Below, piece by piece: positions 6,102 to 53,169 of a DNA stretch of 55,008 nucleotides. The stretch comes from Candidatus Nomurabacteria bacterium. GTDB taxonomy: Bacteria; Patescibacteriota; Minisyncoccia; Phycocordibacterales; UBA9973. The first letter of the stretch is position 1; every line of letters starts with the position of its first letter. Below the pieces are notes generated by a model. The model was not told where the DNA came from. It saw nothing but the letters and a program-made list of their open reading frames with translations, and made no database searches. Made by a program: the position numbers and the translations under genes. Location of the stretch: contig CALRAL010000004.1 of NCBI GenBank assembly GCA_943350875.1, positions 1 to 55,008 on the forward strand, in the 5' to 3' direction.

Positions 6102-6132
6102 AAGTCCCCCTGACAAGGGGGATTTAGGAGGT
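6071..6132. repeat. Composite C-run/G-run hairpin element straddling the rsmA stop codon
   Basis: cctccccTTGTCAggggagg, a 14-nt spacer, cccccTGACAAggggg, then atttaggaggt. The same architecture is found at 24259-24351. Confidence 0.7.
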
Positions 6133-6174
6133 TAGAAACTAGCATTTTATTTTAATTCTTAGTATAATATACGT

Positions 6175-8373: not shown

Positions 8374-11289
8374 GTGAGAAAAATGCAGAAGTTAAATCAA
8401 AAAATGAAGAATTGCATCACCACACTGCTCATAGTGAGCTTTGTGGCTATGCCTATTTTAAATGCCTTTCCTAAAAAAGCAGAGGCACAGAGTATCGGTG
8501 CAAACGCCAATGGCCTCGGTCCACTAATAGCCCAACTACCTGGATGCATACAACTAGCAAAAGACGCTGTAAGCGGTGTTGGGGATTTTATTGGTAATTT
8601 ATTCAGTTCCAATACTAGCAATATACCAGGTAGTTCAGATTTTGTAGGACCAATACAACCAGCAGAAGATAGGAGTGATTTCGTAGGACCACCAGCACCC
8701 AATCTTGAAGATAAAGCAACTAATGGAATAGCAGAAACTAGTGCTGTTACAGTAGTTATAAAAGGATCAGCAGAAAAAAATATAGCTGATTCGAAAACTG
8801 CAGATGAAGCCACTGCGAAAAACGTTGCAGCTCAGCGTAAAAACGACACATGCTTGAAAGCTATCGGTAAAGTAATGGTAAAATTGCTTTTGCAGAAGTT
8901 GACGCAAAGTATGGTAGATTGGATAAACAATGGCTTCAATGGTAAACCAGCTTTTATCCAAAGCCCAGGACAATTCTTTGGCGATATCGCTAAAAATGAA
9001 TTCTTGCAATTTGGGGCAGAGATGAATCCACCGGAATTATACCCATTTGCTAGGGCATTCCTGCAAACTCAAGCTAACGCTTTCAAAAAGAAATTTCATG
9101 ACAACGCAAAATACTCTTTAGATAAATTAATCTATGAAACAACCCCAAACTGCCAAGATGAAAATGGAATACAGATAAGATGTGGTGCTATTGCATTCTA
9201 TCAAAACTTTAACAATGGCGGATGGAATGCTTGGGCCAATGCCACACTACCACAGAATAATCCTGTTGGTTTTCAGATAATAGCAAGTAATGAATTACAA
9301 GATAGATTGAGAGGTCTTTCCAAATCAACAGGTGAGATTATACAAGATTCATTAAATTGGTCTGGAGGGTTTCTCAACCAAGAGCATTGTATAAGCCCAG
9401 CGCATAACATATCGAGAGCAGAAGATGCTGAAGCATTAAAAACATTCGGAAATAATGGACCAACAGCCAAAGATTTATCAGATTGGAAATATGAATATGG
9501 AAACGAACCAATACCTAGACGTTGCACCGGGGGGTTTGAAAATATAACTCCTGGAAAACTAGTAGCAGAAGCAGCTACGAGAGTGACTGCCTACCCAGAG
9601 AATGACTATCTGAAAGCAGATGACTTGAATGATGCAATAGCAGCTATTTTGGATGCTACATTGAACCATTTTGCGGTCAAATGGATGGATGAAGGGTTCA
9701 TTGCTCTTGATAAAGCATTTGGGCCAAAAGCAAAAGCAGGTGGGTTTGAATCTGAGCCCTATGGTGAGAGAAGAAGCACTAGAACAGAAGAAGATTATGA
9801 TAGGAATGACCTAGGTAGAAGCAAATTCTTACAAAATCATCCGAACTTTAATATCCGCACAGACTTAACCCAAGCACTCATAGACGAACAGAGGACTTAC
9901 CAAGATAAATTGAAAAAGCAAAATGAATCTATCACAGATTTAATAAAAGTTATTTACCAGCTTGATTACTGCATCCCAGGTCCTCACCCAGGTTGGTATG
10001 AAGATTCACAGAGAAATTTGGATGTACAAACAAATGCAATAAAATCTGAAACAACAGAAAGCCTCAAAGATGTCACTTTAGAAGGAATATCAAAAATTGC
10101 CAATGTTGGAGCACCGATAGGTGGTGCGATAGGTGGTGCAGCCCTAGCATCAGCATTATTCACTACAACAGCAGTGGGTGGAGCGGCGGCGGCGGGAGCC
10201 ACAGCAGGAAGTGTTGTCCCCATTGTAGGAACAATTATTGGAGCTGCAGTAGGTGCGGCAATAGCTTATGGAATACAAACTTTTAGTGATGGTAAGGATG
10301 AAGAAAAAGTACAACTTTTTTATGCCAGTGTAATAAATGGATTAACTGGCATACAACCTAGTTGGAAAGGAACCGATGATCCTAAAAAACAAAATTTTAG
10401 AAGCAAAGAAGGGACTGTAAATGTAATAAATACAATCTATCAAAGATATGCCAATATAATCGCGAAAACTTATACTACCGAATTCTTGCCAGATGTATAT
10501 AAAGAGGCAACCACAAAGTTTAATGAGGTCAAAGGATACAATCAAATCTTTTTAGATAATGTAGACGAGATAAATAATAGAGAAACTACTATAAAAAAAT
10601 TAATAGAAATAAAAAAAGGAATTGATGAATTAAATAATAGAAAAAGTGTCACTGTAGGTGGAGAAATATTAGCTACTGATAGAGAAAATAAAAAACAATT
10701 TCTAGAACAATATGAAATTGATTTGAAACCATTGATAAAAAAATTCGGGAGATTATCTTCAGGTATGGTTAACGGTGACGATATATCAAATGTTGATAAT
10801 TTAACAAAACAAGTAAATGACGAAAAAAGTTATGTGTATAAAGAGCTATTAAAAGGCCCAGATGGTTGTGAACAACAAATGGTAGAAATTATGAAAAAAA
10901 TAAAAGATGACTTTACAACAAACCCAAATGATCAAGAAAAAGAAGTAAGAAAAGACATTTTCGAAACAAAAAGGATGACTTATCCTGTAGAGATATTGTA
11001 TGACTATAATTACATAGCAGATGGTGCTTCCATACCAGACCCTTGGAATAGTGGTTACGACAAAAATAAAAACATATCTCATAATGATCTTGGTCCAGGG
11101 TTCTTGAGTAAGCTATATTTCAAAATATTTGGTGATGGTAGCAGTAATCAGACAAATCAAATAACTCATCCATTAGATGTCTGGGATTTCTTTGGACATA
11201 ACACAGATGAAGGAACCAAAGAAAGAGCAATAGGTACAAGAAATGATGATTATAATGGCAAATTTGAAAGAGTTATTGGGATTTATTAA
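8374..11289 (+). CDS. Large secreted or membrane protein (971 aa), first gene of the T4SS-like locus. An alternative ATG start lies at 8383.
   Basis: N-terminal signal/TM segment (CITTLLIVSFVAMPILNAFPKKAEA). Central Gly/Ala-rich hydrophobic hairpin (GAPIGGAIGGAALASALFTTTAVGGAAAAGATAGSVVPIVGTIIGAAVGAAIAYG). Coiled C-terminal half. Confidence 0.6.
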   Translation: MRKMQKLNQKMKNCITTLLIVSFVAMPILNAFPKKAEAQSIGANANGLGPLIAQLPGCIQLAKDAVSGVGDFIGNLFSSNTSNIPGSSDFVGPIQPAEDRSDFVGPPAPNLEDKATNGIAETSAVTVVIKGSAEKNIADSKTADEATAKNVAAQRKNDTCLKAIGKVMVKLLLQKLTQSMVDWINNGFNGKPAFIQSPGQFFGDIAKNEFLQFGAEMNPPELYPFARAFLQTQANAFKKKFHDNAKYSLDKLIYETTPNCQDENGIQIRCGAIAFYQNFNNGGWNAWANATLPQNNPVGFQIIASNELQDRLRGLSKSTGEIIQDSLNWSGGFLNQEHCISPAHNISRAEDAEALKTFGNNGPTAKDLSDWKYEYGNEPIPRRCTGGFENITPGKLVAEAATRVTAYPENDYLKADDLNDAIAAILDATLNHFAVKWMDEGFIALDKAFGPKAKAGGFESEPYGERRSTRTEEDYDRNDLGRSKFLQNHPNFNIRTDLTQALIDEQRTYQDKLKKQNESITDLIKVIYQLDYCIPGPHPGWYEDSQRNLDVQTNAIKSETTESLKDVTLEGISKIANVGAPIGGAIGGAALASALFTTTAVGGAAAAGATAGSVVPIVGTIIGAAVGAAIAYGIQTFSDGKDEEKVQLFYASVINGLTGIQPSWKGTDDPKKQNFRSKEGTVNVINTIYQRYANIIAKTYTTEFLPDVYKEATTKFNEVKGYNQIFLDNVDEINNRETTIKKLIEIKKGIDELNNRKSVTVGGEILATDRENKKQFLEQYEIDLKPLIKKFGRLSSGMVNGDDISNVDNLTKQVNDEKSYVYKELLKGPDGCEQQMVEIMKKIKDDFTTNPNDQEKEVRKDIFETKRMTYPVEILYDYNYIADGASIPDPWNSGYDKNKNISHNDLGPGFLSKLYFKIFGDGSSNQTNQITHPLDVWDFFGHNTDEGTKERAIGTRNDDYNGKFERVIGIY

Positions 11290-11296
11290 ATTGGAG

Positions 11297-13744
11297 ATGC
11301 AAAAAAATATATTTAAAATATTAATACTTGGAATCATATTGTTGTCCACACCATTTTTTGCACATGCATGGGATATGAAAACTTATGAGGCTTTTGGAGT
11401 TCATCGTGACTCTGCAATCTTGTGGGGTGGTCTTGATGACACTGGAACCCTCAAATTTGAATTTAGAAGTAAAAGTGACTATGTAAATGCTGCTGATCCG
11501 ACAACAGGTCATCCAGATGGACAAATCTTAAGTGAGGATAATGATGACAATCATCCAGGGAAAAACACTTGTAGGGGTAAATTTAAAGACACAGGAACTG
11601 ATTATCAAAATCATCCAGGAACTGATTTTTCTGGATTCCTTGGAGCTTATTGTCGTCTCTTTAACTTAGAACCAAATACTACATACTATTTTCGTGCTTG
11701 CGCACAAAATCCAGACACAAACCATCCTTATAGATGCTCACCTATTATAAATAACTTTACGACAACAGTAGACCCTTCAAATAATCCTCTGCTAAAAACT
11801 GGTCCGACAGAAAAAGTAAGACAAAACAGTGCTAGACTGAAAGGATTATTTAATTCTAGTGATGGAAGTGATATTTTTGATATTTGGTTTGAATATAGTA
11901 CTGATGAACAAACAGTTCAAGAAAATTCTGGCATACCTATTGTTGCAAGGCATGATAGTAATGGTGGATCTCAAACAATAAGTGAACTAATACCAGAAAC
12001 CATGTATTATTATCGAGTTTGTGCTAATAATGAAAGAAATCACCCAACAATTGCAAACTGTGGAGAAATTGTTAGTTTCAAAACACTGAATGGTTTCAAA
12101 CCTCAAGTAATATCAGAAAGAGTAGAAAATGTACAACGCAAAAAAGCCATTTTGGTGGTAAATGTTAAACCAAATTATGCTGAAACTACTATTGATTTTC
12201 TGCTTGGAAAAGCAATAAACCAAAATATGAATGGTCTTCATTGTGACTTAAATGAAACGACAAATTCAAAAAGTATTCTTATTAAAGCAGGAACTACTTG
12301 GAACGAAGGTGAAACTCAATGGCCAGTAGAAAACTTAGAACCAAAAACATATTATTGTTTCAATGTAAAAATTCACAATAAATACGGAGACGATGAAGGA
12401 TTCGTAAAAACATTTTTCACTCGAGGCCCGGAAGACCTGCCCGAAAGCAACCTTGCTGTCATTACTGATGGAGCAGATTCTATTAACGACGTAAGTGCAA
12501 TATTAAAAGGTCACGGGAAGCCTGCCACTCCGCCAATAATCCCGCCAGCCACTACACCTGCTCCAGTCTTGCCGACCAGCGTATATTTCAGGTATTCTAC
12601 TGCCAATAAGCCACCAGTTTTCTGTAACGACATTTATGGTACTAATATGATTGCCACAAGGGACCAAAAAATAACAAGAAAACCCCCAAGCAACCCACCG
12701 CTTTCACCAACTGACCCAGAAAATCTAGTACAATTTTCTCAAAAAATCACTGGGCTTATCCCTGACACAATCTATTATTATTGCGCCGTAATTTCAGATA
12801 AGAATGACATAACTTATGGCTATGATAGTAATACTAACAAAATGCCATCTTTCCGCACAGCACCTTGTTCTACTTGTGATCAAACAAATGTAGAGACAAA
12901 AAGTGTAGATAGTGTGAATGAAATATCGGCAGAACTGAAAGGAACTTACCGTTCAACAGAAGTTGTAAAAACATATTTCGAATATAGGGCAATGGCACAA
13001 AAGACCAGAGAAGGAATAGCCTTAGAGATAGGGGATTGGATAAAAGTAGATGAAACAACACAAAGCAAGGGCTCTATTGGTGATATGGATTTCGTTCTAC
13101 CAAAATTAAATCCAAATACAACATATCAGTACAGAGCAGTGGCACAAGCAATGGAAAATAGTTTCACTCCTAACAAAAGATTCGTTGGACAGACTATCAC
13201 ATTTAAAACGGAACGTTTAAGTACAGACACAGGAAATGGCGGATATTCTGGATACAATAATAGCCAAAACAATACTAATTATGGCGACTTCGGAAATGGA
13301 AATAATTTTGATGGAGAAAATAACAGCTTCAATAATTATGGGGACAATAGTTCTAACAACAGTGGACCTAGTTTTACATTGGGACAAACTGCTACTCCAC
13401 CTGTTGATGCTACAGTACACAGTAAAGAAGGTGTCGAGACAGTATTCGCAAGGCAGATAGTGGGGAATAAAGCCCTCGCAAGCAAATATGGCTATACCGA
13501 TGGGCAAGATCTGCAAACTTTCGCAGGTACATTAGCACACTCATTGGCAATAACTTTCGGATATATAAGCGCCAGTGGTAAAGAAATACGTGTGGCACAG
13601 GCAGACGTGGCAGCCTATCAGTTGGAGTTCGTAAATGACAAATTGACTGTGTATGAATATTTCAGAAACATCATCATAAATATCCAAGATGTCACATCAG
13701 TTTTCAAAAATGTTCACGAATATGAGTATACCTTCAAGAAGTAG
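11297..13744 (+). CDS. Secreted protein with about 5 fibronectin-III-like repeats and an Asn/Gly/Ser-rich low-complexity segment
   Basis: The ATG at 11297 gives a signal peptide (MQKNIFKILILGIILLSTPFFAHA). Recurrent repeat ends: LEPNTTYYFRAC, LIPETMYYYRVC, LEPKTYYCFNV, LIPDTIYYYCAV, LNPNTTYQYRAV. The track start at 11243 overlaps the previous gene and lacks the signal-peptide logic. Confidence 0.65.
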   Translation: MQKNIFKILILGIILLSTPFFAHAWDMKTYEAFGVHRDSAILWGGLDDTGTLKFEFRSKSDYVNAADPTTGHPDGQILSEDNDDNHPGKNTCRGKFKDTGTDYQNHPGTDFSGFLGAYCRLFNLEPNTTYYFRACAQNPDTNHPYRCSPIINNFTTTVDPSNNPLLKTGPTEKVRQNSARLKGLFNSSDGSDIFDIWFEYSTDEQTVQENSGIPIVARHDSNGGSQTISELIPETMYYYRVCANNERNHPTIANCGEIVSFKTLNGFKPQVISERVENVQRKKAILVVNVKPNYAETTIDFLLGKAINQNMNGLHCDLNETTNSKSILIKAGTTWNEGETQWPVENLEPKTYYCFNVKIHNKYGDDEGFVKTFFTRGPEDLPESNLAVITDGADSINDVSAILKGHGKPATPPIIPPATTPAPVLPTSVYFRYSTANKPPVFCNDIYGTNMIATRDQKITRKPPSNPPLSPTDPENLVQFSQKITGLIPDTIYYYCAVISDKNDITYGYDSNTNKMPSFRTAPCSTCDQTNVETKSVDSVNEISAELKGTYRSTEVVKTYFEYRAMAQKTREGIALEIGDWIKVDETTQSKGSIGDMDFVLPKLNPNTTYQYRAVAQAMENSFTPNKRFVGQTITFKTERLSTDTGNGGYSGYNNSQNNTNYGDFGNGNNFDGENNSFNNYGDNSSNNSGPSFTLGQTATPPVDATVHSKEGVETVFARQIVGNKALASKYGYTDGQDLQTFAGTLAHSLAITFGYISASGKEIRVAQADVAAYQLEFVNDKLTVYEYFRNIIINIQDVTSVFKNVHEYEYTFKK

Positions 13745-13746
13745 CA

Positions 13747-13771
13747 CCTAGCAAGGACAGTCCTTGCTAGG
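13747..13771. repeat. 25-nt perfect palindrome (12-bp arms) immediately after the stop codon
   Basis: CCTAGCAAGGAC-a-GTCCTTGCTAGG. Its 21-nt core is repeated identically at 17400-17420. Confidence 0.85.
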
Positions 13772-13787
13772 GGGAAGTTATAAAGAA

Positions 13788-14435
13788 ATGCGAAAATCAA
13801 ATACAAAAACAAATAAAAGAGAAATAATGCTGATACCAAATGAAAGGGTGATCAGTAAGATATTTTTTATTAGAAACAAAAAGGTTATGATAGATAGTGA
13901 CCTCGCAGGACTTTATGGAGTTGAAACAAAAGTACTCAATCAGGCTGTTAAAAGAAATCTAGAAAGATTCCCAGAAGATTTTATGTTTCAGCTTACTAAA
14001 GAAGAAGCTAATGCTTGGAAATCAGAAGTTGAAATACCAAACTTAAGGTACCAAATTGGCACCTTAAGTTCAAGGTCACAATCTGTGACCTTGAATAACT
14101 TGAATTCACAATCTGTGACCTCAAGTTCAAGGTACCAAATTGGCACCTTGAAACAAGGTGAAAATATAAAATATCTGCCTTATGTTTTCACTGAACAAGG
14201 TGTCGCCATGCTCTCATCTGTTTTAAATAGCAAAAGAGCGATACAGGTAAATATCCAAATCATCCGAACGTTTACGCAGTTTAGAGAGTTATTGTTGGGG
14301 GATAAAGAATTAAGGACAAAGATAGAAAAAATGGAGAAAAAATATGACAGCAAATTGAAAGAAGTGTTTGATTTATTAAAACAGTTAATCATGGAAGAAG
14401 TAGAGCCAAAAGGTAAAATAGGATATAGGAGGTAG
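13788..14435 (+). CDS. ORF6N (KilA-N-related) DNA-binding domain protein
   Basis: IFFIRNKKVMIDSDLAGLYGVETKVLNQAVKRNLERFPEDFMFQLTKEE and LPYVFTEQGVAMLSSVLNS are the family hallmarks as I recall them. The TTG start at 13764 in the track lies inside the palindrome, so the ATG at 13788 (or 13827) is preferred. Confidence 0.75.
   Translation: MRKSNTKTNKREIMLIPNERVISKIFFIRNKKVMIDSDLAGLYGVETKVLNQAVKRNLERFPEDFMFQLTKEEANAWKSEVEIPNLRYQIGTLSSRSQSVTLNNLNSQSVTSSSRYQIGTLKQGENIKYLPYVFTEQGVAMLSSVLNSKRAIQVNIQIIRTFTQFRELLLGDKELRTKIEKMEKKYDSKLKEVFDLLKQLIMEEVEPKGKIGYRR
14042..14152 (+). repeat. Four tandem 27-30-nt palindromic units inside the ORF6N CDS
   Basis: Units at 14042-14068, 14069-14095, 14096-14125 and 14126-14152. 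Example: TTCAAGGTCACA-atc-TGTGACCTTGAA. They encode LRYQIGTLS / SRSQSVTLN / NLNSQSVTSS / SRYQIGTLK. Confidence 0.8.
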
Positions 14436-17029: not shown

Positions 17030-17776
17030 ATGGATGAAAAAACAACACAAATGATAAAAGAGCGATTTGATGCTTTGCCTAAAATGATCCAGGAGGCAAT
17101 TCTCTCATCTGGTTATGAAAATTCACTAATAGAAATTGGTAAAAAATATCAATTAAATGTTGAACAAATGGGCACGCTTGAGCTGGAAACAACCTTGACA
17201 ATGATGGGAATAACCGCTACTAAAGATTTTGAAGTTGAACTGACACGCGAGCTTAAATTTGATAAAATAAAAGGTGCGCAAATAGTCACAGATATTAATG
17301 AGAAAGTATTTTTGACTATCCGAGAATTACTGAAAATAATGAATACACCACCGGGAGAAAAATCAGAACTTGATGAACCTGTTGAATTAGAAGAACCTAT
17401 AGCAAGGACAGTCCTTGCTAGTAATGCTAGTAAAAATGAAGGGGAGGGAAATAAAAATGTGTTAAAATCTGCTGGGATAGAGATACTGGATGGAGATAAA
17501 AGAATGGATGAAAAAGAAATTGAAAAAAATAGAGTAGTACAAAATATCTCAAAATTGACTGACTTTTCAAAAGCTACAACTATTAAAACAGAATATTCAT
17601 TAAATAATATTTCAAAAGCTGGGGTATCAGTGCCCAAAACAGAACCATCCCCATCGTTAGTAAAAACAGCTATGCCTGGGGGAATAATGCCAACATCAAC
17701 TGTGTCGCAAGGAGCAAATTTATCACCATCATACGGAATAAAATCTGACCCTTACAGGATGTCACCGAATGAATAG
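17030..17776 (+). CDS. Hypothetical protein (248 aa) within the T4SS-like locus
   Basis: Clean ORF with no recognised motif. Carries the in-frame palindrome at 17400-17420. Confidence 0.5.
   Translation: MDEKTTQMIKERFDALPKMIQEAILSSGYENSLIEIGKKYQLNVEQMGTLELETTLTMMGITATKDFEVELTRELKFDKIKGAQIVTDINEKVFLTIRELLKIMNTPPGEKSELDEPVELEEPIARTVLASNASKNEGEGNKNVLKSAGIEILDGDKRMDEKEIEKNRVVQNISKLTDFSKATTIKTEYSLNNISKAGVSVPKTEPSPSLVKTAMPGGIMPTSTVSQGANLSPSYGIKSDPYRMSPNE
17400..17420. repeat. 21-nt palindrome in frame inside the CDS
   Basis: TAGCAAGGAC-a-GTCCTTGCTA, identical to 13749-13769. Encodes IARTVLA. Confidence 0.85.
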
Positions 17777-20806: not shown

Positions 20807-21805
20807 ATGTTATATAATAGAAATATGATAAAAAAATACTTAATTTTATGTCTAATATTCGCAAGTATTTCTTTTGCTACTGTAGCTTATGCGCAAGTGA
20901 GAGATGGCGACATATCTTTAAATATTTCCCCAGCGAATCCAAACCCAAATGAAAACGTCACAGCTACTCTAAACAGCTACGTCATCACTCTCGACAATGC
21001 GAATATCTCTTGGTCTGTAGAGGGCCAAGAGATGTCTTCTGGCATAGGTAAAAAGAGCTTTTCCTTTAATTCTGGGAGTCTCGGATCTCAACTAAACCTG
21101 ACAGCAACCATAAACACTGTGGATGGCCAAACCATCACCAAGAGTGTGACCATCACCCCTGCAGGATTGGACATCCTCTGGGAAGGGGTAGATTCATATA
21201 CTCCTCCGTTTTATAAAGGTAAAACATTGGTGGCTAATCAAGGGGCTTTCAAAGTCGTAGCTATGCCAACTTTGAACATGCTAGGCGGGAGAGTGAGCCC
21301 AAACAACCTTTCCTATAAATGGGGCAAGGATGGCAGTGGGGCTCCAAATGCTTCCGGCTGGGGCAAGAGTTATTATATTTTCCGCAATAGCTACTTAGAC
21401 CGAGAGAATGAGGTGGAAGTGGAAGTAAAAGACATCCTAGGCAGTACCAGCGCCACAGGGAAGATAGATTTACAGACAGTGGATCCGAAAATAGTATTCT
21501 ACAAGAAAAGTCCGCTCACCGGCACAAGATTAGAAAACAGCATCAAAGACGGAGCTTTCATAAATGGGAGCGGGGAGACACTCGTAGCTGTGCCATACTT
21601 CTTCTCACCTAAAAACATAGCTAGGCCAGAGCTCACTTTTGATTGGCTTTTAAATAATCAAAAAGTGGAAACTCCAGATTCCAAAAATACGCTCTCAATC
21701 AAGACAGAAAATGGAGAATCCGGAACTGCAAGGATAAAAGTGGTGATTAATAACATCAACACACTTTTCCAAAGTATGGAAAAAGAAATAAATGTCAGTT
21801 TTTAA
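20807..21805 (+). CDS. Secreted beta-rich hypothetical protein. An alternative ATG start lies at 20825.
   Basis: Signal peptide MIKKYLILCLIFASISFATVAYAQ. The last codons (MEKEINVSF-stop) lie in the 39-bp duplicated segment. Confidence 0.6.
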   Translation: MLYNRNMIKKYLILCLIFASISFATVAYAQVRDGDISLNISPANPNPNENVTATLNSYVITLDNANISWSVEGQEMSSGIGKKSFSFNSGSLGSQLNLTATINTVDGQTITKSVTITPAGLDILWEGVDSYTPPFYKGKTLVANQGAFKVVAMPTLNMLGGRVSPNNLSYKWGKDGSGAPNASGWGKSYYIFRNSYLDRENEVEVEVKDILGSTSATGKIDLQTVDPKIVFYKKSPLTGTRLENSIKDGAFINGSGETLVAVPYFFSPKNIARPELTFDWLLNNQKVETPDSKNTLSIKTENGESGTARIKVVINNINTLFQSMEKEINVSF

Positions 21806-21814
21806 GAAATACAA
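21776..21814 (+). repeat. Left copy of the 39-bp direct repeat flanking the BrnTA cassette
   Basis: atggaaaaagaaataaatgtcagtttttaagaaatacaa, identical to 22488-22526. Confidence 0.9.
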
Positions 21815-21832
21815 AAATGTGGATAATTAAAC

Positions 21833-22487: not shown

Positions 22488-22526
22488 ATGGAAAAAGAAA
22501 TAAATGTCAGTTTTTAAGAAATACAA
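22488..22526 (+). repeat. Right copy of the 39-bp direct repeat
   Basis: Identical to 21776-21814. Supplies the start codon and first 7 codons of the downstream gene. Confidence 0.9.
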
Positions 22527-23919
22527 GAAAATAGTTTTACCTTTCTTTATACTTTTCGTATTTTTTGGTATTTCACATTATGTAAATGCAATAACATTAT
22601 CTACGATAGGAATAGATGGATCTAATTGGGGGATAAAAGCAACAGCAACAGGTAGTGACATAAGAACATATAATTTTAGTGAGATACCAAGTGTAATTAT
22701 CTATAAAGGAACCAGTATAGTAAAAACACAAAACCTCCCTAACTATGTAAATGACATTGCAAATATATTAATCACAGGTCTAGAAAAAAATACTACATAC
22801 AAAGCAGTTATAAAAAGTAACCCACCTGAACCTGGAGTTCCAATGGAACTTGCTCAGATTGAAAAAACCACAGGGGTAGCAACTCCAAGCCAAGATCCAA
22901 TAATAATAGGTATAACTCCAACTCCTTCAACTCAACCAACTAAAACTTGTTTCCAATGGGATAAAAATCCCAATAATGATACAATTTTAACCCCAGGAAA
23001 ATGGTGGTTCAGTAATTTAACTTCTTCTTATTTATATTTTTGGGGACCATATGACAGTGAAAATAATTGCAAAGATAAACTAAAAGATTTATCTGCTCCA
23101 CCAAAAGATACAGATACTTCATATACTTTACTTGCTCCACTACCTGGATTGGGGCTTGGAGATAATAAACCTTTTGAGACTGATAATAAAAAAAATCCAT
23201 GTGCTTTTGGAAACTATTTGAACATCATGATAAAGCTGATTATAGGTATATGCGCAGTGCTAGCCATGGTGATGATAGTGATGGGGGGGATAGAGTACAT
23301 GACAAGTGAACTCGTCTCTACTAAAGAGCAAGGCAAAGACACCATCACGAACGCCATCCTCGGGCTCGTCATAGCCCTCGGCGTTTTTGTCATATTAAAC
23401 ACCCTAAACCCCGACCTGCTGAAACTGTGTTTAGATAATATGCAACCAGCGACAATAACAATGCTAAGTGAAGAAGATCAACCGCAAACATATGATCTAG
23501 AAACAAAGTTATACCCCAATGGAATTAAGTTTGGTGTAAAATGGGATGATTCAGTTAGTCAAAAAGCAACTTTACCTAACTATGTAAAAATCTCTCCTCT
23601 GAAGGAATGCATAACTGTAGGACAACCAAACTGTACATCAACTAGAGGCTTAAACCCCGACAATGTAAAAACAACACAATGGGGATGCTTGTGTGATTTG
23701 GTAATTACAGGTGGAACAGAATTTTGGTTACATGGTGGTAAAAATGGAAAGACAACTCATAAACTTGATAGCGGAACTGTAGATCTACGTCTTGAAACAA
23801 AATTAAATGATTATATTAATAAATATGGGAAAAAAACTGAAGGAAAATATGGTCCAGTATATACAATAGGTAGTATTTCTTATTTAAAAGAAAATGATCA
23901 TTGGCATGTTTATAATTAA
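22504..23919 (+). CDS. T4SS-pilin-like (TrbC/VirB2-type) protein with an N-terminal extracellular domain and a C-terminal putative LAS/M15 metallopeptidase domain
   Basis: Signal/TM segment at the N-terminus. Pilin-like two-helix hairpin (NPCAFGNYLNIMIKLIIGICAVLAMVMIVMGGIEYMTS...TITNAILGLVIALGVFVILNTL). C-terminal VITGGTE...THKLDSGTVDL...DHWHV resembles the SxHxxGxAxD ... HxH zinc-ligand arrangement. Confidence 0.6.
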   Translation: MSVFKKYKKIVLPFFILFVFFGISHYVNAITLSTIGIDGSNWGIKATATGSDIRTYNFSEIPSVIIYKGTSIVKTQNLPNYVNDIANILITGLEKNTTYKAVIKSNPPEPGVPMELAQIEKTTGVATPSQDPIIIGITPTPSTQPTKTCFQWDKNPNNDTILTPGKWWFSNLTSSYLYFWGPYDSENNCKDKLKDLSAPPKDTDTSYTLLAPLPGLGLGDNKPFETDNKKNPCAFGNYLNIMIKLIIGICAVLAMVMIVMGGIEYMTSELVSTKEQGKDTITNAILGLVIALGVFVILNTLNPDLLKLCLDNMQPATITMLSEEDQPQTYDLETKLYPNGIKFGVKWDDSVSQKATLPNYVKISPLKECITVGQPNCTSTRGLNPDNVKTTQWGCLCDLVITGGTEFWLHGGKNGKTTHKLDSGTVDLRLETKLNDYINKYGKKTEGKYGPVYTIGSISYLKENDHWHVYN

Positions 23920-23925
23920 ATTTTT

Positions 23926-25353
23926 ATGACAACAAGAAATTTAACACTTTTAATAATAATTTTGATCGGAGCGGTTTTGGTGACGCTGGGCTTTTTGTAT
24001 TTTTACAAACCAGCAAACAATGATGGAACAGCTGGAAGCGCTACAAACTTCATCTCACAACTCTTCCCATTTGGTAAAAGTAAAACTGTGACAACTCCTG
24101 GAGGAGAAACTCCGGTAGATGTGTCAGGATTCGTTCCCACCCCAGTAGAGGAAATACCAAAAACAAAAATAACAAAAGTTTCTACTATGCCTATAGCAGG
24201 ATATGGAGTGTTTATGAAGGAAAGGTTTAAAGATGTGCCGGTGGTAGCAAACCCTACCCCAACCCTCCCCTTGTCAGGGGAGGGAGATATTATTAGCCCC
24301 CCTGACAAGGGGGGTAAGGGGGGTTTAATTGCCAAAGGGGATTTAGGGGGTCAGAAGGATAAAAAAGGGAAAGTTATTCCCCAAAAACCCACAGCTCCTC
24401 CTACTGAATTCGTCCCAGCTTTGAGATATGTGGACAGAACAACAGGTAACATTTATCAAACTTACGCAGATAAAATTGAAGAAAGGAAATTCTCTGGCAC
24501 AATCATACCAAAAGTCTATGAAGCATATTTCGGGGACAAAGATGAGTCTGTAGTGATGCGATATTTGAAAGAAGACGATAAAACAATAGAGACTTTCGTC
24601 GGGGCCTTGGCCAAAGAATTCCTAGGAGCAGACTCTGATGGTAGTACAGATGTAAAAGGTTCTTTCTTGCCAGAAAATATCACTGACATGAGCATGTCTC
24701 CAGATGGGAAGAGAATGTTTTATTTATTTAATGTAGGCAATGGTACGACAGGAATAACTGCTGAAGCATCGGGTGGCCAGAAGAACCAGGTTTTCGATTC
24801 GCCATTTACAGAATGGTTGTCCTTTTGGCCAAGCAACAAAATGATTACTCTGACTACCAAACCCTCTGCCAATGTGCCAGGGTTTATGTACGCTATAGAC
24901 CCAGACAAAAAAGATTTTAATAGAATATTAGGAGGAATAAATGGCCTAACCACGCTCACCAGCCCTGATGGTAAGCTAGTATTGTTCGGTAACAATAATT
25001 TATCACTCAATATTTACAACATTGCGACTGGAAACATAAATCAAGTAAGTGTGAAAACACTCCCTGAAAAATGTGTTTGGGGTAGAGCAAGCGACAAAGT
25101 ATACTGTGCAGTACCAAAATCAATTGATGGAGCATCCTACCCAGATGATTGGTATCAAGGAGAAGTTTCATTTGGAGATGAAATATGGAGGATAGATGCC
25201 ATAAATGGCAATGCTGATATTTTAGGAGATCCTAGCTCTATGGTGGGTGGGGAAGAGGTGGATGGCATCAAACTTTCACTAGACGAAAATGAAGATTATC
25301 TATTTTTCGTGAACAAAAAGGATTCTTACCTTTGGAAATTAAACTTAAGGTAG
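23926..25353 (+). CDS. Membrane-anchored protein with TolB-like beta-propeller repeats
   Basis: N-terminal TM segment (LTLLIIILIGAVLVTLGFLYFY). Repeats SPDGKRMFY and SPDGKLVLF are typical of WD40-like beta-propeller (TolB/PD40) repeats. Confidence 0.6.
   Translation: MTTRNLTLLIIILIGAVLVTLGFLYFYKPANNDGTAGSATNFISQLFPFGKSKTVTTPGGETPVDVSGFVPTPVEEIPKTKITKVSTMPIAGYGVFMKERFKDVPVVANPTPTLPLSGEGDIISPPDKGGKGGLIAKGDLGGQKDKKGKVIPQKPTAPPTEFVPALRYVDRTTGNIYQTYADKIEERKFSGTIIPKVYEAYFGDKDESVVMRYLKEDDKTIETFVGALAKEFLGADSDGSTDVKGSFLPENITDMSMSPDGKRMFYLFNVGNGTTGITAEASGGQKNQVFDSPFTEWLSFWPSNKMITLTTKPSANVPGFMYAIDPDKKDFNRILGGINGLTTLTSPDGKLVLFGNNNLSLNIYNIATGNINQVSVKTLPEKCVWGRASDKVYCAVPKSIDGASYPDDWYQGEVSFGDEIWRIDAINGNADILGDPSSMVGGEEVDGIKLSLDENEDYLFFVNKKDSYLWKLNLR
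24259..24351. repeat. Composite C-run/G-run hairpin element in frame in the linker of the TolB-like protein
   Basis: ccaaccctccccTTGTCAggggaggg, a 12-nt spacer, ccccccTGACAAgggggg, then ggggatttaggggg. Homologous to 6071-6132. Encodes PTLPLSGEGDIISPPDKGGKGGLIAKGDLGG. Confidence 0.75.
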
Positions 25354-25448
25354 AGCTTTTTACGGTACGGATTTTTTGAAGCTTAAAAAATCCTGAAGTT
25401 TTCGGCTCGACAGCCTCAAAACCCCTGCAAAAGCTCTACCTTAAGTTT
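25341..25448 (+). repeat. Stop-codon-anchored hairpin element, copy 1: 20-bp perfect inverted repeat clamping a conserved 68-nt core
   Basis: Arms aaacttaaggtagagctttt (25341-25360) and aaaagctctaccttaagttt (25429-25448). The core has hairpins GGATTTTTT-gaagctt-AAAAAATCC and GTTTTC-GGCT-cgac-AGCC-TCAAAAC. Confidence 0.85.
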
Positions 25449-32444: not shown

Positions 32445-33626
32445 ATGATGACGAAGGTAATAACAGATGAAAAAAAGATAGATGAAGTTTTGAACAGAGG
32501 CACAGAAGATGTTTTTGTAAAAGAACATTTAAGGCAACAGCTTTTGTCAGGTCGTGTTTTGCGAGTAAAATTTGGGATTGATCCGACAGGACCTAAAATA
32601 CATTTAGGTAGAGCTATTCCTTTGCGTAAATTAAGAGCTTTCCAAGATTTGGGACATAAAGTTATTTTAATTGTGGGTGATTTTACAGCGACTATTGGAG
32701 ATCCTTCAGATAAGCTTGAAAAAAGACCAATGTTAACAGTTTCAGAAATAAAGAAAAATATGAAAGATTACAAGAATCAGCTTGGAAAGATTATAGATCT
32801 TAAAAAAGCAGAGTTTGTTTACAACAGTAAATGGCTTGGTAAGTTGGGTTTTAAGGAAATTTCAGAATTAGCCGAAAGTTTTTCACTTCAGCAAATGTCT
32901 AACAGAAGGAACTTCAAAGATCGTATAGAAAAGAATGAAGAAATATCTCTACGTGAACTAATGTATCCTTTGATGCAAGGCTATGACAGTGTGGCAGTAA
33001 AAGCAGATGTGGAAATAGGTGGTTTTGATCAATTATTTAATTTAAAAGCAGGAAGAATTATCCAGAGACATTATGGAATGGCTGAGCAAGACGTCTTGAC
33101 TTTACAAATGCTTGAGGGTACTGATGGACGCAAAATGTCCACCTCTTGGGGTAATGTCATTACTATTGTTGATAAGCCGAAAGATATGTATGGCAAGGTT
33201 ATGGCAATAAAAGATGAATTGATTAATAAATATTTTGATTTGTGTACTGATATAAAAAGTTCTGAAATAAAAAAAGCAGAAAATCCAAAAGAAGACAAAA
33301 TGAAACTTGCTTATGAAATCGTAAAAATATATCACGGAGAGAAAAAGGTCAAAGAAGCAGAGGAGAATTTTGTAAATACATTTTCTAAAAAAGAAATTCC
33401 TGAAGAAATGGAGAAAATAAAAGGGAATATCGGAGAAATATTATCCGATATTCTGGTTTTCAATAAAATTCTTTCCTCAAAAGGTGAATGGAGGAGATTA
33501 GTAGAAGGGAATGCCATTCATGACTTAATAAATAATGAAAATATTACAGATCAATATTTTAAAATATCTAAAGATTTAACTCTCAAAATAGGTAAAAAAA
33601 GATTTATTAAAATTACTCTACAGTAA
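32445..33626 (+). CDS. tyrS: Tyrosine--tRNA ligase
   Basis: GIDPTGPKIHLG (HIGH region), FQDLGHKVILIVGDFTATIGDPSDK, KMSTS (KMSKS motif), and a C-terminal S4-like SKGEWRRLVEGNAI. Confidence 0.85.
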   Translation: MMTKVITDEKKIDEVLNRGTEDVFVKEHLRQQLLSGRVLRVKFGIDPTGPKIHLGRAIPLRKLRAFQDLGHKVILIVGDFTATIGDPSDKLEKRPMLTVSEIKKNMKDYKNQLGKIIDLKKAEFVYNSKWLGKLGFKEISELAESFSLQQMSNRRNFKDRIEKNEEISLRELMYPLMQGYDSVAVKADVEIGGFDQLFNLKAGRIIQRHYGMAEQDVLTLQMLEGTDGRKMSTSWGNVITIVDKPKDMYGKVMAIKDELINKYFDLCTDIKSSEIKKAENPKEDKMKLAYEIVKIYHGEKKVKEAEENFVNTFSKKEIPEEMEKIKGNIGEILSDILVFNKILSSKGEWRRLVEGNAIHDLINNENITDQYFKISKDLTLKIGKKRFIKITLQ

Positions 33627-33657
33627 AAATTACACAGGGGAACCCTGTGTAATTTTT
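33625..33657. terminator. Bidirectional intrinsic terminator: perfect 15-bp stem beginning inside the tyrS stop codon
   Basis: AAAAATTACACAGGG-gaa-CCCTGTGTAATTTTT, between convergent ORFs. Confidence 0.75.
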
Positions 33658-33658
33658 A

Positions 33659-33808
33659 CTAGTGGAAGCTATCATCTGGATCATAACTGTCTTCGTCATC
33701 ATGAAAGACAAAATCATCTTCTGCTCCGAGTATATCTCCATCTCCGTCCGCATCTCCTTCTTTGAACTTTTCTTCTCCTACAACATCATCATTTTCATCA
33801 CTACTCAT
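33659..33808 (-). CDS. Small highly acidic hypothetical protein (49 aa, not in the ORF track)
   Basis: Hand translation gives MSSDENDDVVGEEKFKEGDADGDGDILGAEDDFVFHDDEDSYDPDDSFH. It ends at the bidirectional terminator. Confidence 0.35.
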   Translation of the reverse strand: MSSDENDDVVGEEKFKEGDADGDGDILGAEDDFVFHDDEDSYDPDDSFH

Positions 33809-50011: not shown

Positions 50012-50508
50012 AAAAAGAAAATACAAAAGAGAATATAGTTATATTGCATGATATACGAAGCGTGGAGAATGTGGGGGCGATGTTTCGCACGTCTGATGCT
50101 GTAGGTATAGATAAAATATACATTACTGGATATACGCCGACACCGCTAGATAGGTTTGGCAGGAAAAGGGGAGACTTGGCAAAATCAGCATTGGGGGCCG
50201 AGGAGTTCGTGCTTTGGGAGCAGAAGAAGATGGTGTGTCCTCTAATTGCTAAATTAAAACGGGATGGGTTTACTGTTATTGCCATTGAGCAAGATGAAAA
50301 ATCAGTAGACTATAAAAAAATTTCCGCCAAAGGCGGACCAGCCTATGGCTGGAAAAAACTGGCTTTCATCATGGGCAATGAAGTTTCTGGAATTCCTGAA
50401 AATATTTTAAAAAAATGTGACATCATCGCTGAAATTCCGATGCGAGGCAAAAAGGAATCACTGAATGTTTCTGTCGCGCTTGGGGTTGTTTTATTCGCAG
50501 TATTATAA
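50008..50508 (+). CDS. SpoU/TrmH-family RNA 2'-O-methyltransferase
   Basis: NVGAMFRTSDAVG, FIMGNEVSGI, IPMRGKKESLNVSVALGVVLF (SPOUT motifs). Confidence 0.8.
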   Translation: MKKENTKENIVILHDIRSVENVGAMFRTSDAVGIDKIYITGYTPTPLDRFGRKRGDLAKSALGAEEFVLWEQKKMVCPLIAKLKRDGFTVIAIEQDEKSVDYKKISAKGGPAYGWKKLAFIMGNEVSGIPENILKKCDIIAEIPMRGKKESLNVSVALGVVLFAVL

Positions 50509-50596
50509 TTTTAGAGCACGGATATTTTTTTGCTAAAAAATTCCTCGTGCTCGCGCTAGTCGCGCTCCCAAGTCTCTAAAATCATAATACTGCGAA
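50494..50596 (+). repeat. Stop-codon-anchored hairpin element, divergent relative (23-bp arms, 1 mismatch)
   Basis: Arms ttcgcagtattataattttagag (50494-50516) and ctctaaaatcataatactgcgaa (50574-50596). The core cacggatatttttttgctaaaaaattcct... resembles the copy 1 core. The left arm contains the last codons and stop of the TrmH-family gene. Confidence 0.7.
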
Positions 50597-50605
50597 TATC
50601 TAATA

Positions 50606-50709
50606 GCTGAGGGTAATACTTTTGCAGGGGTTTTGAGCTCGACGGAGCGAAAACTTCAGGATTTTTTAAGCTTCAAAAAATCCGTACCGTAAAAAGTATT
50701 AGCCTAAGC
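50606..50709 (-). repeat. Stop-codon-anchored hairpin element, copy 2 (minus orientation)
   Basis: Read on the minus strand, the 50624-50690 core equals the copy 1 core except inside hairpin 2. Arms at 50606-50623 and 50692-50709 (18 bp, 2 mismatches). It starts at the mutM stop codon. Confidence 0.85.
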
Positions 50710-51653
50710 TATTTCTGGTGTGAATCACAAAAATGTGTACTTCTGCTATTGATAATTTTTCTTTTTATCGTGCCAGTACAATCTTTTTTCTGACATTTTT
50801 CTCCAGCTCTTTGGTAAGCTTTATGATGGAGTTGGAATTTACCTCGCAGTCCATAAATATTCCTATAATCTGACATAGAATCTCCACCAAAATCTATGCC
50901 TTTTGAAAGTGTTTCTTTTATTGCCTTTAACATCAATATCATTTCTTTTCCTGTGATTTTTGAAGCGGGTCTTTCAGGATGTACTCCTATGCGCCACAAT
51001 ATCTCGTCTGAATAGATGTTACCTATTCCGGCTATCACAGACTGGTCCATCAATACTGTTTTTGTTTTACCTTTTGGTTTTTTTGATAGACATTTTTTTA
51101 ATTCTTTTAAATCAAAACTTTTTAAAAGCGGTTCCGGACCAATGCCGTCTAAATGTTTACTTTCGTGCATAGTTTTTGTATCTAGTGTTGTTATCTTGCC
51201 GAATTTTCTAGTATCACAGAAAACTAAATGTTTACCATTGGATAAAATAAAAACAAAATGTATAAATCTGTTATAAGGGTCATGTAAGGGGGTCTTTTCT
51301 CCGTCAGGTATCCAAAAAGGACGGTCCTTTAGAGAGCCTCCCCAAGGACCGTCCTTAAAGAGCCCAAATTTGTATTTTCCATACAGCAAATGCCCAGTCA
51401 TCTTCATATGAACCAGAATAGTCTTTTGATTACTCAAATTTATTAGTATATTTTTCGCTCTCCTTTCTGCACTAATTATTTTCTTTCCAGTTACTTCTTT
51501 TTTGAAAAATTTAAAATACTTTGTATTTGCAACAGTGTCGTTTTTCCTTTTATCTTTAGTATTTAAATCAGTCCAGACATCTTTAATGGTGAGTCCTACG
51601 ACTTCCTTTCTTAAACCTCTCGTAGTTGTCTCTACTTCTGGTAGTTCTGGCAT
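50709..51653 (-). CDS. mutM: Formamidopyrimidine-DNA glycosylase (Fpg/MutM)
   Basis: MPELPEVETT N-terminus, H2TH region, C-terminal zinc finger CQKKDCTGTIKRKIINSRSTHFC. Confidence 0.9.
   Translation of the reverse strand: MPELPEVETTTRGLRKEVVGLTIKDVWTDLNTKDKRKNDTVANTKYFKFFKKEVTGKKIISAERRAKNILINLSNQKTILVHMKMTGHLLYGKYKFGLFKDGPWGGSLKDRPFWIPDGEKTPLHDPYNRFIHFVFILSNGKHLVFCDTRKFGKITTLDTKTMHESKHLDGIGPEPLLKSFDLKELKKCLSKKPKGKTKTVLMDQSVIAGIGNIYSDEILWRIGVHPERPASKITGKEMILMLKAIKETLSKGIDFGGDSMSDYRNIYGLRGKFQLHHKAYQRAGEKCQKKDCTGTIKRKIINSRSTHFCDSHQK
51316..51356. repeat. Two AAGGAC-N-GTCCTT palindromes in frame in mutM
   Basis: AAAGGAC-g-GTCCTTT (51316-51330) and AAGGAC-c-GTCCTT (51344-51356). Encodes part of FKDGPWGGSLKDRPFW. 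Confidence 0.75.
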
Positions 51654-52326: not shown

Positions 52327-52578
52327 ATGCCAATAATTAAATCAGCTAAAAAAGCTATCCGTGTGTCTTTACGCAAAAAGGCTATAAATGACAGCCGAAA
52401 GCGTGCGATGAAAGATATAATCAAGAAAATAGAGAAAACTGTAAAAACAGACAAATCTGAAGCGGTTAAGATGCTTTCTACTGCTTTTCAGACTATAGAT
52501 AAAGCATATAAGAGGGGGGTTATTAAGAAAAATAACGCTGCTAACAAGAAATCACGTTTATCAAAGTTGGTTAGATAG
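52327..52578 (+). CDS. rpsT: 30S ribosomal protein S20
   Basis: MPIIKSAKKAIRVSLRKKAINDSRKRAMK, a basic 83-aa protein. Confidence 0.88.
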   Translation: MPIIKSAKKAIRVSLRKKAINDSRKRAMKDIIKKIEKTVKTDKSEAVKMLSTAFQTIDKAYKRGVIKKNNAANKKSRLSKLVR

Positions 52579-52691
52579 AAAGTTAAAAATTTTGTTTTCT
52601 AGGGTACGGATTTTTTTAAGCTTAAAAAAATCCTGAAGTTTTCGCTCCGTCGAGCTCAAAACCCCCTAAAAACAAAATTTTTAACTTTCTA
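52576..52691 (+). repeat. Stop-codon-anchored hairpin element, copy 3 (about 28-bp arms with one bulge)
   Basis: Arms tagaaagttaaaaattttgttttctaggg (52576-52604) and ccctaaaaacaaaatttttaactttcta (52664-52691). The core shares hairpin 1 and the hairpin-2 variant with copy 2. Confidence 0.85.
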
Positions 52692-52996: not shown

Positions 52997-53071
52997 TGGT
53001 GCCCTCAGTAGGAATCGAACCTACATCGCAACTTCCGCAAAGTTACGTCCTATCCATTGAACGATGAGGGC
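52997..53071 (-). tRNA. tRNA-Arg (anticodon GCG) with encoded CCA
   Basis: Hand-folded: GCCCTCA/TGAGGGC acceptor, GTTC..GGAC D stem, TAACT-ttGCGga-AGTTG anticodon arm, GTAGG-ttcgatt-CCTAC T arm, A-CCA end. Confidence 0.85.
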
Positions 53072-53138: not shown

Positions 53139-53169
53139 AAAAGCGATTTCATAAAATGAAATCGCTTTT
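53139..53169. terminator. Perfect 14-bp hairpin with A/T-run flanks (bidirectional terminator-like)
   Basis: AAAAGCGATTTCAT-aaa-ATGAAATCGCTTTT. Confidence 0.6.

Follow-up and report, generated by a model that had tools for sequence, protein, structure and literature searches.

Repetitive extragenic palindromes (REPs) and bacterial interspersed mosaic elements (BIMEs) lie just 3' of coding regions, mainly between convergent or co-directional genes, are GC-rich, measure 20-40 nt, usually number more than 100 per genome, and carry an unpaired GTAG or CGTC tag beside the hairpin (PMC3733652, PMC2817692, PMC3333891, PMC3116915). The roles proposed for REPs lie in termination, in the stabilisation of mRNA or in DNA topology, with the element read as a folded single strand, and REPINs, which are associated with RAYT transposases, are long-persisting hairpins of about 100 nt with conserved arms and a variable loop (PMC3733652, PMC2817692, PMC3333891, PMC3116915). 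We analysed a stretch of 55,008 nt from a Candidatus Nomurabacteria bacterium (GenBank assembly GCA_943350875.1, contig CALRAL010000004.1, positions 1 to 55,008; the whole stretch is called the window) and found in it three near-identical copies (units A, B, and C) and one divergent relative (unit D) of a structured palindrome, in which a conserved two-hairpin centre, or core, is held between long complementary arms that form a clamp. The window is a Paceibacteria-type chromosome, and the repeat, which may be a palindromic element of the REP/ERIC-like kind in a newly found form, is specific to Paceibacteria-type bacteria of the candidate phyla radiation (CPR). To our knowledge, almost nothing is known of the non-coding DNA of the CPR or Patescibacteria, whose genomes are tiny and largely uncultured.

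REP/BIME and REPINs are the closest functional analogues of this element. Like REPs, the units are extragenic, follow stop codons and have a conserved tetranucleotide next to a hairpin: on the 5' side of hairpin 1 GTAC never varies, and hairpin 2 has CGYC as its loop. Unlike REPs, they measure about 120 nt, have the tag GTAC instead of GTAG, occur in few copies per genome, and hold CGTC, CGAC or CGCC in the loop of hairpin 2 and not at an end. Compared to REPINs the arrangement is reversed, in that the centre is conserved and the arms are variable. ERIC, Correia, RUP, and YPAL are imperfect palindromes of ~100-150 bp. They form one long hairpin, occur in transcribed intergenic regions in either orientation, and have variants with internal insertions; ERIC itself combines low copy number in some species with a high and unexplained conservation across species. 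ERIC-type elements are conserved over their whole length including the terminal repeats, and many have TA target duplications. ERIC and similar imperfect palindromes have been reviewed (PMC2229807, PMC3184786). Such palindromes are the closest formal analogues: the present element resembles ERIC in its size of about 120 nt, its long hairpin, its occurrence in either orientation and its puzzling cross-species conservation, and differs in belonging to another phylum, in having no detected sequence relationship, in a conservation centred on two hairpins, and in lacking a duplication.

An earlier note on the window had proposed a family of three near-identical cores plus one divergent copy, all set in long clamps anchored at stop codons, and this family was recovered as described (Table 1). 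A covariance model built from 78 copies of other genomes was scanned over the whole 55 kb. Its scores were 103-110 bits for units A, B, and C and far lower for unit D, with no significant match beyond these four. An exact 41-mer of the core occurred twice in the window versus never in 100 shuffles, and folding compared with shuffled controls gave z-scores of -5.1 to -8.3 for the four units. The note's stem length stood for unit A, whose 20 bp are perfect; for unit B it had given 18 bp, and we found 22 bp with two mismatches, no more than 10 of them perfect in a row. Stems were unique to each locus within the window, as had been stated, whereas across genomes the arms formed subfamilies and were homologous at orthologous sites. 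Likewise, the stop codon of the co-oriented upstream gene lay within the 5' arm in 4/4 window units, the genes encoding a 475-aa hypothetical protein, Fpg, S20, and a SpoU methylase; this co-orientation proved to be no rule across the family. Unit A lies between the convergent 475-aa gene, which has no Pfam match, and jag/R3H. Units D and B lie tail-to-tail between convergent genes (50494-50713), an arrangement kept in a Parcubacteria metagenome-assembled genome (MAG; locus L074, 6900-7111; loci from other genomes are given L numbers), and a further variant, with a D-type hairpin 2 adjoining a B-type unit, was seen in L047 at about 1390-1600. A plain hairpin without a centre, 3' of a class I W/Y-type aminoacyl-tRNA synthetase gene (Pfam tRNA-synt_1b), served as a comparison object; it has no T-run after it.

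Table 1. Units of the palindromic family in the window, their parts, and a plain hairpin used for comparison (positions of the window)
Feature	Position	Strand	Structure and position relative to genes	Covariance model score
Unit A, whole	25341..25448	+	20-nt arm, 68-nt centre (core 25361-25428), 20-nt arm; arms 25341-25360 / 25429-25448	108.1 bits
Unit A, 5' arm	25341..25360	+	AAACTTAAGGTAGAGCTTTT; holds final codons and TAG stop (25351-25353) of open reading frame (ORF) 23926-25353	
Unit A, hairpin 1	25369..25393	+	GGATTTTTT-GAAGCTT-AAAAAATCC; palindrome AAGCTT inside loop	
Unit A, hairpin 2	25398..25422	+	GTTTT-C-GGCT-CGAC-AGCC-TC-AAAAC	
Unit A, 3' arm	25429..25448	+	AAAAGCTCTACCTTAAGTTT	
Unit B, whole	50602..50713	-	arms 50692-50713 / 50602-50623, centre 50624-50691; 5' arm with TAG stop of fpg (ORF 50709-51653, minus strand)	109.7 bits
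Unit C, whole	52576..52691	+	arms 52576-52598 / 52669-52691 (perfect over 23 bp; 84% if extended to 37 nt), centre 52599-52668; 5' arm opens with TAG stop of rpsT (S20)	102.7 bits
Unit D, divergent relative	50494..50596	+	arms 50494-50516 / 50574-50596 (23 bp, 1 mismatch), centre 50517-50573 (57 nt); 5' arm holds TAA stop of SpoU methylase gene	31.8 bits (E = 4e-7)
Plain stop-anchored hairpin without centre, not a family member	33622..33660	+	18-bp perfect stem, GAA loop	12 bits, not significant

The anatomy of the unit was derived from 167 non-redundant units. Each consisted of two arms of about 28 nt and a centre of about 63 nt, giving a total of about 110-125 nt. Counted from GTAC to the outermost pair, most arms had 24-31 nt, the commonest lengths being 27-30 nt, and this near-constant length indicated that the unit has a defined size, which on this count is about 115-125 nt. 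On either strand the 5' side was A-rich and the 3' side T-rich, and in most copies a T-run (TTTT, sometimes interrupted) stood directly 5' of the junction. The centre read (C/G)GGTAC, hairpin 1 (GGATTTTTT GAAGCTT AAAAAATCC), TGAA, hairpin 2 (GTTTTC NNNN CGYC NNNN TCAAAAC), and CCC, and folded as a three-way junction with an AT-rich hairpin 1 and a GC-rich hairpin 2. The stem of hairpin 1 was nearly unchanged in the 153 copies of standard length, with pairs 8-30 and 9-29 invariant and the first pair G-C in 146 of them, and its second pair covaried in the divergent D-type relatives (GG/CC, GC/GC, GA/TC). The inner 4-bp stem of hairpin 2 existed in about a dozen Watson-Crick versions, including GCGC, GGCT, GCTC, GCAC/GTGC, GTGT/ACAC, GCCC/GGGC, and GCCT/AGGC; three of its pairs showed 19, 28, and 22 double changes with 99% of cells paired, and for the outer pair 39-56, 95 copies had U-A and 51 had C-G. 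Some units carried an additional hairpin of 10-45 nt, placed within the loop of hairpin 1 in L004 (3103-3234) and L087 (4358-4471) and in place of the tip of hairpin 2 in L058 (2415-2560) and L032 (2408-2551), so that both hairpins are extendable.

The inner arms formed subfamilies common to unrelated loci, one reading ...ATRAAC TTTTTYCGG / CCTNCAAAAG TTAT... with a conserved bulge, and another ...AATATTTTTGCC / TTAAAAACATT... with a conserved A·C mismatch. The outer arms differed between loci, and conserved ends were confined to one long-form subfamily (TTTGAATTACGAAACTC...GAGTTTCGTAATTCAAA), in which the centre is of the B type or the D type; its outer palindrome was never seen without a centre. 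No consistent target-site duplication was found at the outer arm boundaries of the 167 units, nor in comparisons of filled with empty sites. Since the arms keep a near-constant length and are missing where the core is missing, and since their inner parts are conserved across unrelated loci and flip together with the core, the arms belong to the unit. The view of a conserved loop in a unique stem was thereby modified: it holds as a gradient, conservation falling away from the centre, and fails in that the stem is part of the element. Several other readings of the centre were set aside. Its sense strand has stops in all three frames, it contains no promoter-like hexamer pair in either orientation when judged by eye, as an invertible promoter would, and its junctions (UAC / UGAA / C) are, by eye, unlike the hammerhead core, the other small ribozymes being covered by the Rfam null result given below. 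We also observed a different centre, ...GCCTTCGCCCTCGGAG-N-GGACAGGGAACCCACGAC..., which is likewise conserved and enclosed, next to gene ends, by long complementary arms that vary from locus to locus; it is unrelated in sequence and alike in architecture. It occurs in L001 (two copies), L028, L041, L045, L134, L197, and L202 and nowhere in the window, and it had no Rfam match in the two loci scanned (L028 and L045).

The exact 20-mer common to units A, B, and C was found in 92 stretches of the species-representative genome collection. Five of these were chance matches inside unrelated genes, and the remainder were complete cores, hosted by Nomurabacteria, Paceibacterota, Parcubacteria, Yonathbacteria, Vogelbacteria, and other Patescibacteria MAGs, with the first three names covering nearly all of them. 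Counted over the first 80 loci, the core was present in at least 49 species assemblies, and a 35-mer of it in at least 120 metagenome contigs. Species genomes carried 3-5 exact 20-mer matches, including four on one 813-kb contig, and many core matches lay at contig ends, as is expected of a repeat. Two scans of viral contigs gave no core match, and a phage origin was rejected on this ground. The 1.6-kb spoU-fpg region of the window was collinear with that of L074 at about 72% nucleotide identity. At the curated gathering threshold of Rfam the whole window gave two tRNAs only and 18 related loci gave tRNAs only, and a permissive scan of unit A returned only generic long-hairpin miRNA models far below threshold. 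A full-text literature search for the core sequence yielded 0 papers, and searches on repeat elements of the CPR likewise yielded no description. The element thus matches no known Rfam family and no paper with its sequence was found, consistent with the earlier impression that it had not been described.

We further investigated the position of the units relative to genes. Of the 137 units with enough flanking sequence, 107 had a gene (80 aa or longer) whose end fell inside an arm or no more than 40 nt from it. The ending gene was on the co-oriented side only in 42, on the opposite side only in 29, and on both sides in 36, and on either side the stop codon had a median position of -1 relative to the outermost arm base. 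The association with stop codons and flanking inverted repeats, first noticed in the window, therefore holds family-wide. Where both neighbours were called (98 units), they were both in the orientation of the core in 36, convergent in 34, both opposite to the core in 19, and divergent in 9, so that 89/98 units lay between convergent or co-directional genes. The flanking genes were housekeeping genes (RNase Y, RecA, EF-G, S9, S20, trigger factor, FtsZ, SerRS, XerC/D-type recombinase, ComEC, Fpg, and SpoU); GyrB, SmpB, ThrRS, and others, recognised by eye, are presumably also among them.

Several relatives carried plain terminators where others carried units. In L186 a canonical terminator, AAAAAGCCCC-ATAA-GGGGCTTTTT, follows rpsT at the site of unit C in the window, and L027 (after the RNase Y gene) and L073 (between a convergent pair) had plain A-tract / GC-stem / T-tract hairpins at such sites. 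The canonical terminators at orthologous positions indicated that the units occupy terminator positions. The units resemble intrinsic, bidirectional terminators in lying at stop codons or between convergent genes and in being A-rich 5' and T-rich 3' on both strands, and many units in other genomes end in T-runs. They differ in having stems of 20-30 bp instead of 5-12 bp and, as the loop, a conserved 63-nt three-way junction. Near the units of the window, the only clear bidirectional terminator-like site called was 53139-53169, where a perfect palindrome of 14 bp has A/T tracts (AAAAGCGATTTCAT AAA ATGAAATCGCTTTT) and lies beside a tRNA-Arg gene (52997-53071). At the RNase Y site of L174 a different long inverted repeat, GCCCGCACACCTATTTTGGTATT...AATACCAAAATAGGTGTGCGGGC, stands in place of a unit, with an AT-rich spacer of about 90 nt and no recognisable core.

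Clustering of the flanking proteins showed that many sites were orthologous across species, with a unit kept at rpsT, fpg, jag, recA, rny, and smpB. All four sites of the window recurred: rpsT in L150, L196, and L203, fpg in L074 and L046, the 475-aa/jag pair in L031, L034, L066, and L115, and spoU with a D-type unit in L074. At the RNase Y-HU site, compared over seven species, identity was 78% in the last 300 nt of the coding sequence and 46% at its third codon positions, as against 76-80% in the arms and 96% in the core. Unit B was identical to its L074 ortholog at 63/63 core positions, and both had the inner stem GCTC/GAGC, while unit A had GGCT/AGCC; unit D differed from its ortholog at 2-3 loop positions. 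The arms differed widely between the window and L074 yet stayed complementary, including the SpoU arm, which is coding, so that the proposed upkeep of the clamp through sequence drift was borne out even where one arm encodes protein. The identity of the cores and the persisting complementarity of diverged arms indicated that the centre is under purifying selection and that arm complementarity is maintained. Copies of one contig showed 4.8 differences versus 5.5 between random pairs, and gene-conversion homogenisation is therefore not the main cause of the conservation; concerted evolution was rejected because same-locus copies were hardly more alike than random pairs. Some copies of the same genome shared derived states, such as the GTTCT...GAAAC variant found in all copies of several contigs.

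Units were also absent as a whole from some sites. L045 had neither arms nor core beside a gene whose protein was 94-97% identical to those in unit-bearing relatives, and the same was true of L047 between recA and efp and of L068, L073, and L209 between smpB and ssrA. The earlier note had suggested comparing orthologous gene ends with and without the core in search of empty hairpins; in 1.5 Mb we met no hairpin that was empty and shared its arms with a filled site. In L164 a shortened second copy (…AAATCCGTACCTGGAAAAAGTGTATATTTTATAAACTT) lies directly beside the complete unit at the RNase Y site, which points to a partial duplication there or to insertion a second time. Together with the mixed junction subfamilies at recA and jag, where different species carry different ones, this fragment indicated that some re-insertion or replacement happens too. 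A strain-level empty site for unit C was sought, and the only other contig with an identical S20 protein ends inside the element; smpB-ssrA comparisons hinted at an inverted duplication of the target and were ambiguous; and a 54-nt difference between L047 and L096/L130 proved to be an unrelated indel adjoining the unit. In the latter case L096 and L130, otherwise 100% identical to L047, differ from it just downstream of the unit by the 54-nt insertion ACTTTATATATGGTCCTCCTTCGCCAAGGATTCGGGCGGACGCGGGAAAAATTA, set directly before a start codon; it could be a further small element or simply an indel between strains.

The orientation of the core was compared between orthologous pairs. At flank identities of at least 98%, 32 pairs had the same orientation and 0 were flipped; at 80-90%, 24 were the same and 22 flipped, co-directional pairs included; and below 80%, 62 were the same and 44 flipped. 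These counts indicated that inversion is frequent on the time-scale of species. At the co-directional RNase Y-HU site the core was sense in four species and antisense in four, the gene-proximal arm staying homologous (AAATCTTnnAAATATAAC) while the core and the inner-arm bulge flipped together. Recombination between the inverted arms of the unit itself would be the simplest route to such inversions. Orientation of the core is close to neutral. A rule tied to the replication strand was rejected, in that the GC skew of strongly skewed loci gave a bias only and was confounded with gene orientation.

Several results bear on whether the structure is read as RNA or as DNA. Non-canonical pairs in the core helices were 7 of G·U type versus 14 of A·C type (a tally from pair tables), and those in the outer arms 34 versus 55, transversion-type mismatches being the commonest. 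A wobble signature at the RNA level was rejected, with no G·U excess in any context of transcription direction. With DNA folding parameters both strands folded equally well, and the core sequence was equally conserved in both orientations. The structure is clearly selected, apparently either through Watson-Crick pairing of both strands or as DNA hairpins, and hairpin 1 and the junctions are putative sites of sequence-specific recognition. The random orientation, the antisense and divergent units, the lack of a G·U preference and the equal folding of the strands argue against a sense-specific RNA, and a strictly co-oriented 3'-untranslated region (3'-UTR) RNA is unlikely.

We favour the reading of the repeat as a structured palindrome of Paceibacteria that is REP/ERIC-like and composed of a hairpin clamp at operon ends and a centre that is a putative recognition site, and give this reading a probability of roughly 0.45. 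The clamp would form a strong hairpin on transcripts arriving from either direction, and this hairpin may, in the manner of REP elements, end transcription or shield the 3' end. The centre would be a sequence-specific site for a hypothetical trans-acting factor, read as a folded single-stranded nucleic acid, as a palindromic duplex, or on whichever strand is exposed, and if it is read in folded form or on either strand, its orientation would not matter. On this reading units are mostly inherited vertically, flip (most simply, it would seem, through recombination between their own arms), are lost as whole palindromes, and are occasionally copied whole to other gene ends. The fast-drifting arms may stay complementary because one arm is corrected against the other in the folded hairpin, by template switching or repair, through selection, or through both; template switching as the source of the complementarity is a reasonable inference. 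A more specific version is offered only tentatively: the centre would be an orientation-independent chromosomal cis-element that marks operon ends and is read, as folded DNA or on either transcript, by a conserved Paceibacteria factor, with a clamp actively kept complementary by template switching within the hairpin. On that version the element would be functional 'punctuation' more constrained than the neighbouring proteins, neither a parasite nor a plain terminator.

Several observations weigh against the favoured reading. In about 9% of cases the unit stands between two divergent genes, a place at which neither gene has its end. A scan for consensus terminators called none of the four window units, nor the hairpin at 33622, and the window units showed no clear U-tract. 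Orientation may not be fully neutral, given the mild bias in tandem contexts (36 units sense versus 19 antisense to both neighbours, of 55) and in GC skew on the core-sense strand (positive at 37 strongly skewed loci, negative at 16). The different junction subfamilies at recA and jag fit repeated insertion at a hot spot better than pure vertical descent. Copy number is low, unlike that of REPs, with three strong copies and one divergent copy in 55 kb and 3-5 exact matches per genome, and the covariation tallies take in copies descended from one event. The trans-acting factor is hypothetical, and the role in termination is only inferred.

Several alternatives were weighed. A small mobile element, made of the centre and short inner repeats, could insert into the apical loop of stop-codon terminator hairpins, the outer arms being the old stem. 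A precedent exists in IS1397, ISKpn1, and ISPpu9/IS110-family insertion sequences, which encode transposases and target REP hairpins (PMC1525189, PMC12288879). These are likewise enclosed by inverted repeats borne by the locus; unlike them, the enclosed part here is 63-68 nt and non-coding, and the arms behave as part of the unit. Such insertion would explain the recA and jag sites, the plain terminator hairpins at orthologous sites and at 33622-33660 in the window, the nesting of B-type or D-type centres in the larger palindrome TTTGAATTACGAAACTC...GAGTTTCGTAATTCAAA, the additional hairpins within the hairpin loops of L004, L087, L058, and L032, and the frequent breaks of contigs within the element. 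It would not predict a near-constant arm length, which is unexpected of unrelated host terminators, nor core-free sites that lack arms as well, with no empty matching hairpin and no outer palindrome without a centre. No target-site duplication was seen, and no transposase stood beside any of >200 units: tblastn over the 1.5 Mb around them with two Y1 (HUH) queries, a weak test, gave nothing significant, and the fetched loci held no autonomous transposase-encoding relative among their housekeeping genes. Orthologous cores are also far more conserved than neutral sites, and turnover alone poorly explains why the rare D type was kept at one site in both the window and L074. We therefore consider loop insertion unlikely, and the form of it given in the earlier note, a core that enters terminator loops alone, found no support in that form, given the nearly constant arm length, the joint flipping of inner arms and bulge with the core, and the armless empty sites. 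Unlike a classical MITE, which derives from a DDE transposon, the element has neither terminal inverted repeats common to all copies nor a target-site duplication, and it shares with IS200/IS605-derived palindromes the two hairpins, the lack of duplication and the T-run 5' of the junction, and differs in its long complementary arms and in having no TnpA near the units in the same weak test. Integron attC sites have conserved R''/R' (RYYYAAC...GTTRRRY) at the stem base, cassette arrays, and an integron integrase; unlike these, conservation here is apical and not basal, and the neighbours are syntenic housekeeping genes.

A cis-acting structured 3'-UTR RNA, serving as a specialised terminator, processing site or 3'-end stabiliser with its clamp (P1) selected as RNA, would suit the location at stop codons and operon ends, the three-way junction, whose helices covary and whose junction nucleotides are conserved as in many RNA families, the variable-length extensions of both hairpins, and the co-orientation of all four window copies with the 36:19 bias in tandem contexts. 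The RNase Y-HU site, with its 4 sense and 4 antisense species, speaks for random orientation instead, and 19 units are antisense to both neighbours and 9 lie between divergent genes; G·U pairs do not exceed A·C pairs in helices or arms, the core is equally conserved either way round, and the window units lack a U-tract. We regard this as distinctly unlikely, and the 3'-UTR module put forward in the earlier note found no support in that form, given the 24 same versus 22 flipped pairs, the 19/55 antisense units, and G·U no commoner than A·C. Should the similarity of copies instead reflect recent spread or gene conversion of a decaying selfish repeat without function, derived states shared within a genome (GTTCT...GAAAC) and a presence that varies between related species would follow. 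Same-locus copies are nevertheless barely closer than random pairs (4.8 vs 5.5), orthologs share variants that paralogs do not (B and L074 with GCTC/GAGC, A with GGCT/AGCC), arms reach 76-80% where cores reach 96% at orthologous sites, and no viral or plasmid vehicle was seen, which leaves this explanation improbable. An independently transcribed small RNA gene, from whose long stem an enzyme such as RNase III would free a trans-acting centre by cleavage, seems to us more improbable still. Its appeal lies in an orientation independent of neighbouring genes, in a centre extremely conserved compared with its flanks, in a long near-perfect stem that suits double-strand-specific RNases, and in a palindromic AAGCUU loop that could form kissing dimers. 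A gene of this sort would be expected to have a promoter at a fixed distance, and none is conserved there, the arms varying and a scan showing nothing specific; there is no G·U signature of a sense strand, several copies per genome placed exactly on stop codons would be odd for a gene, and individual copies are dispensable, as the sites without a unit in relatives show.

Over distances that saturate synonymous sites, the 63 nt of this element are kept about 96% identical; it is placed at the ends of core housekeeping operons in dozens of species and is indifferent to its own orientation. If a factor does bind it, it would represent a lineage-specific mechanism of transcript ends or chromosome organisation and offer a way to track that factor down. 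Were it mobile, it would be a type of repeat opposite to REPINs and MITEs, with a conserved centre and free arms. The element breaks assemblies of CPR genomes, and the covariance model could serve their annotation.

Other repeats were observed in the window. One of them, GC-rich and made up of either a single hairpin or two (CCTCCCCTTGTCAGGGGAGG ... CCCCCTGACAAGGGGG), occurs at 6057-6133, 24250-24325, 38642-38688, 5689-5718, and 44522-44551. Most of its copies lie within long ORFs with the frame intact; the one at 24250-24325 is inside the 475-aa gene preceding unit A, and the one at 6057-6133 spans the stop of ORF 5217-6101. In this it is reminiscent of the in-frame palindromic elements of Rickettsia. 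A 42-nt direct repeat (ATGGAAAAAGAAATAAATGTCAGTTTTTAAGAAATACAA...), 98% identical between 21776-21817 and 22488-22529, lies across the stop of ORF 20807-21805 in its first copy and across the start of ORF 22504-23919 in its second. Two adjacent palindromes of about 56 nt at 14040-14152, inside ORF 13764-14435, carry the same two hairpins in swapped order (AACTTAAGGTACCAAATTGGCACCTTAAGTT / CAAGGTCACAATCTGTGACCTTGAA). Finally, a 22-nt palindrome with TAG/CTA at both ends (TAGCAAGGACAGTCCTTGCTAG) is identical at 13749-13770 and 17400-17421 and 82% identical at 5413-5434, with copies near the ends of ORF 11243-13744 and of the ORF starting at 5217.

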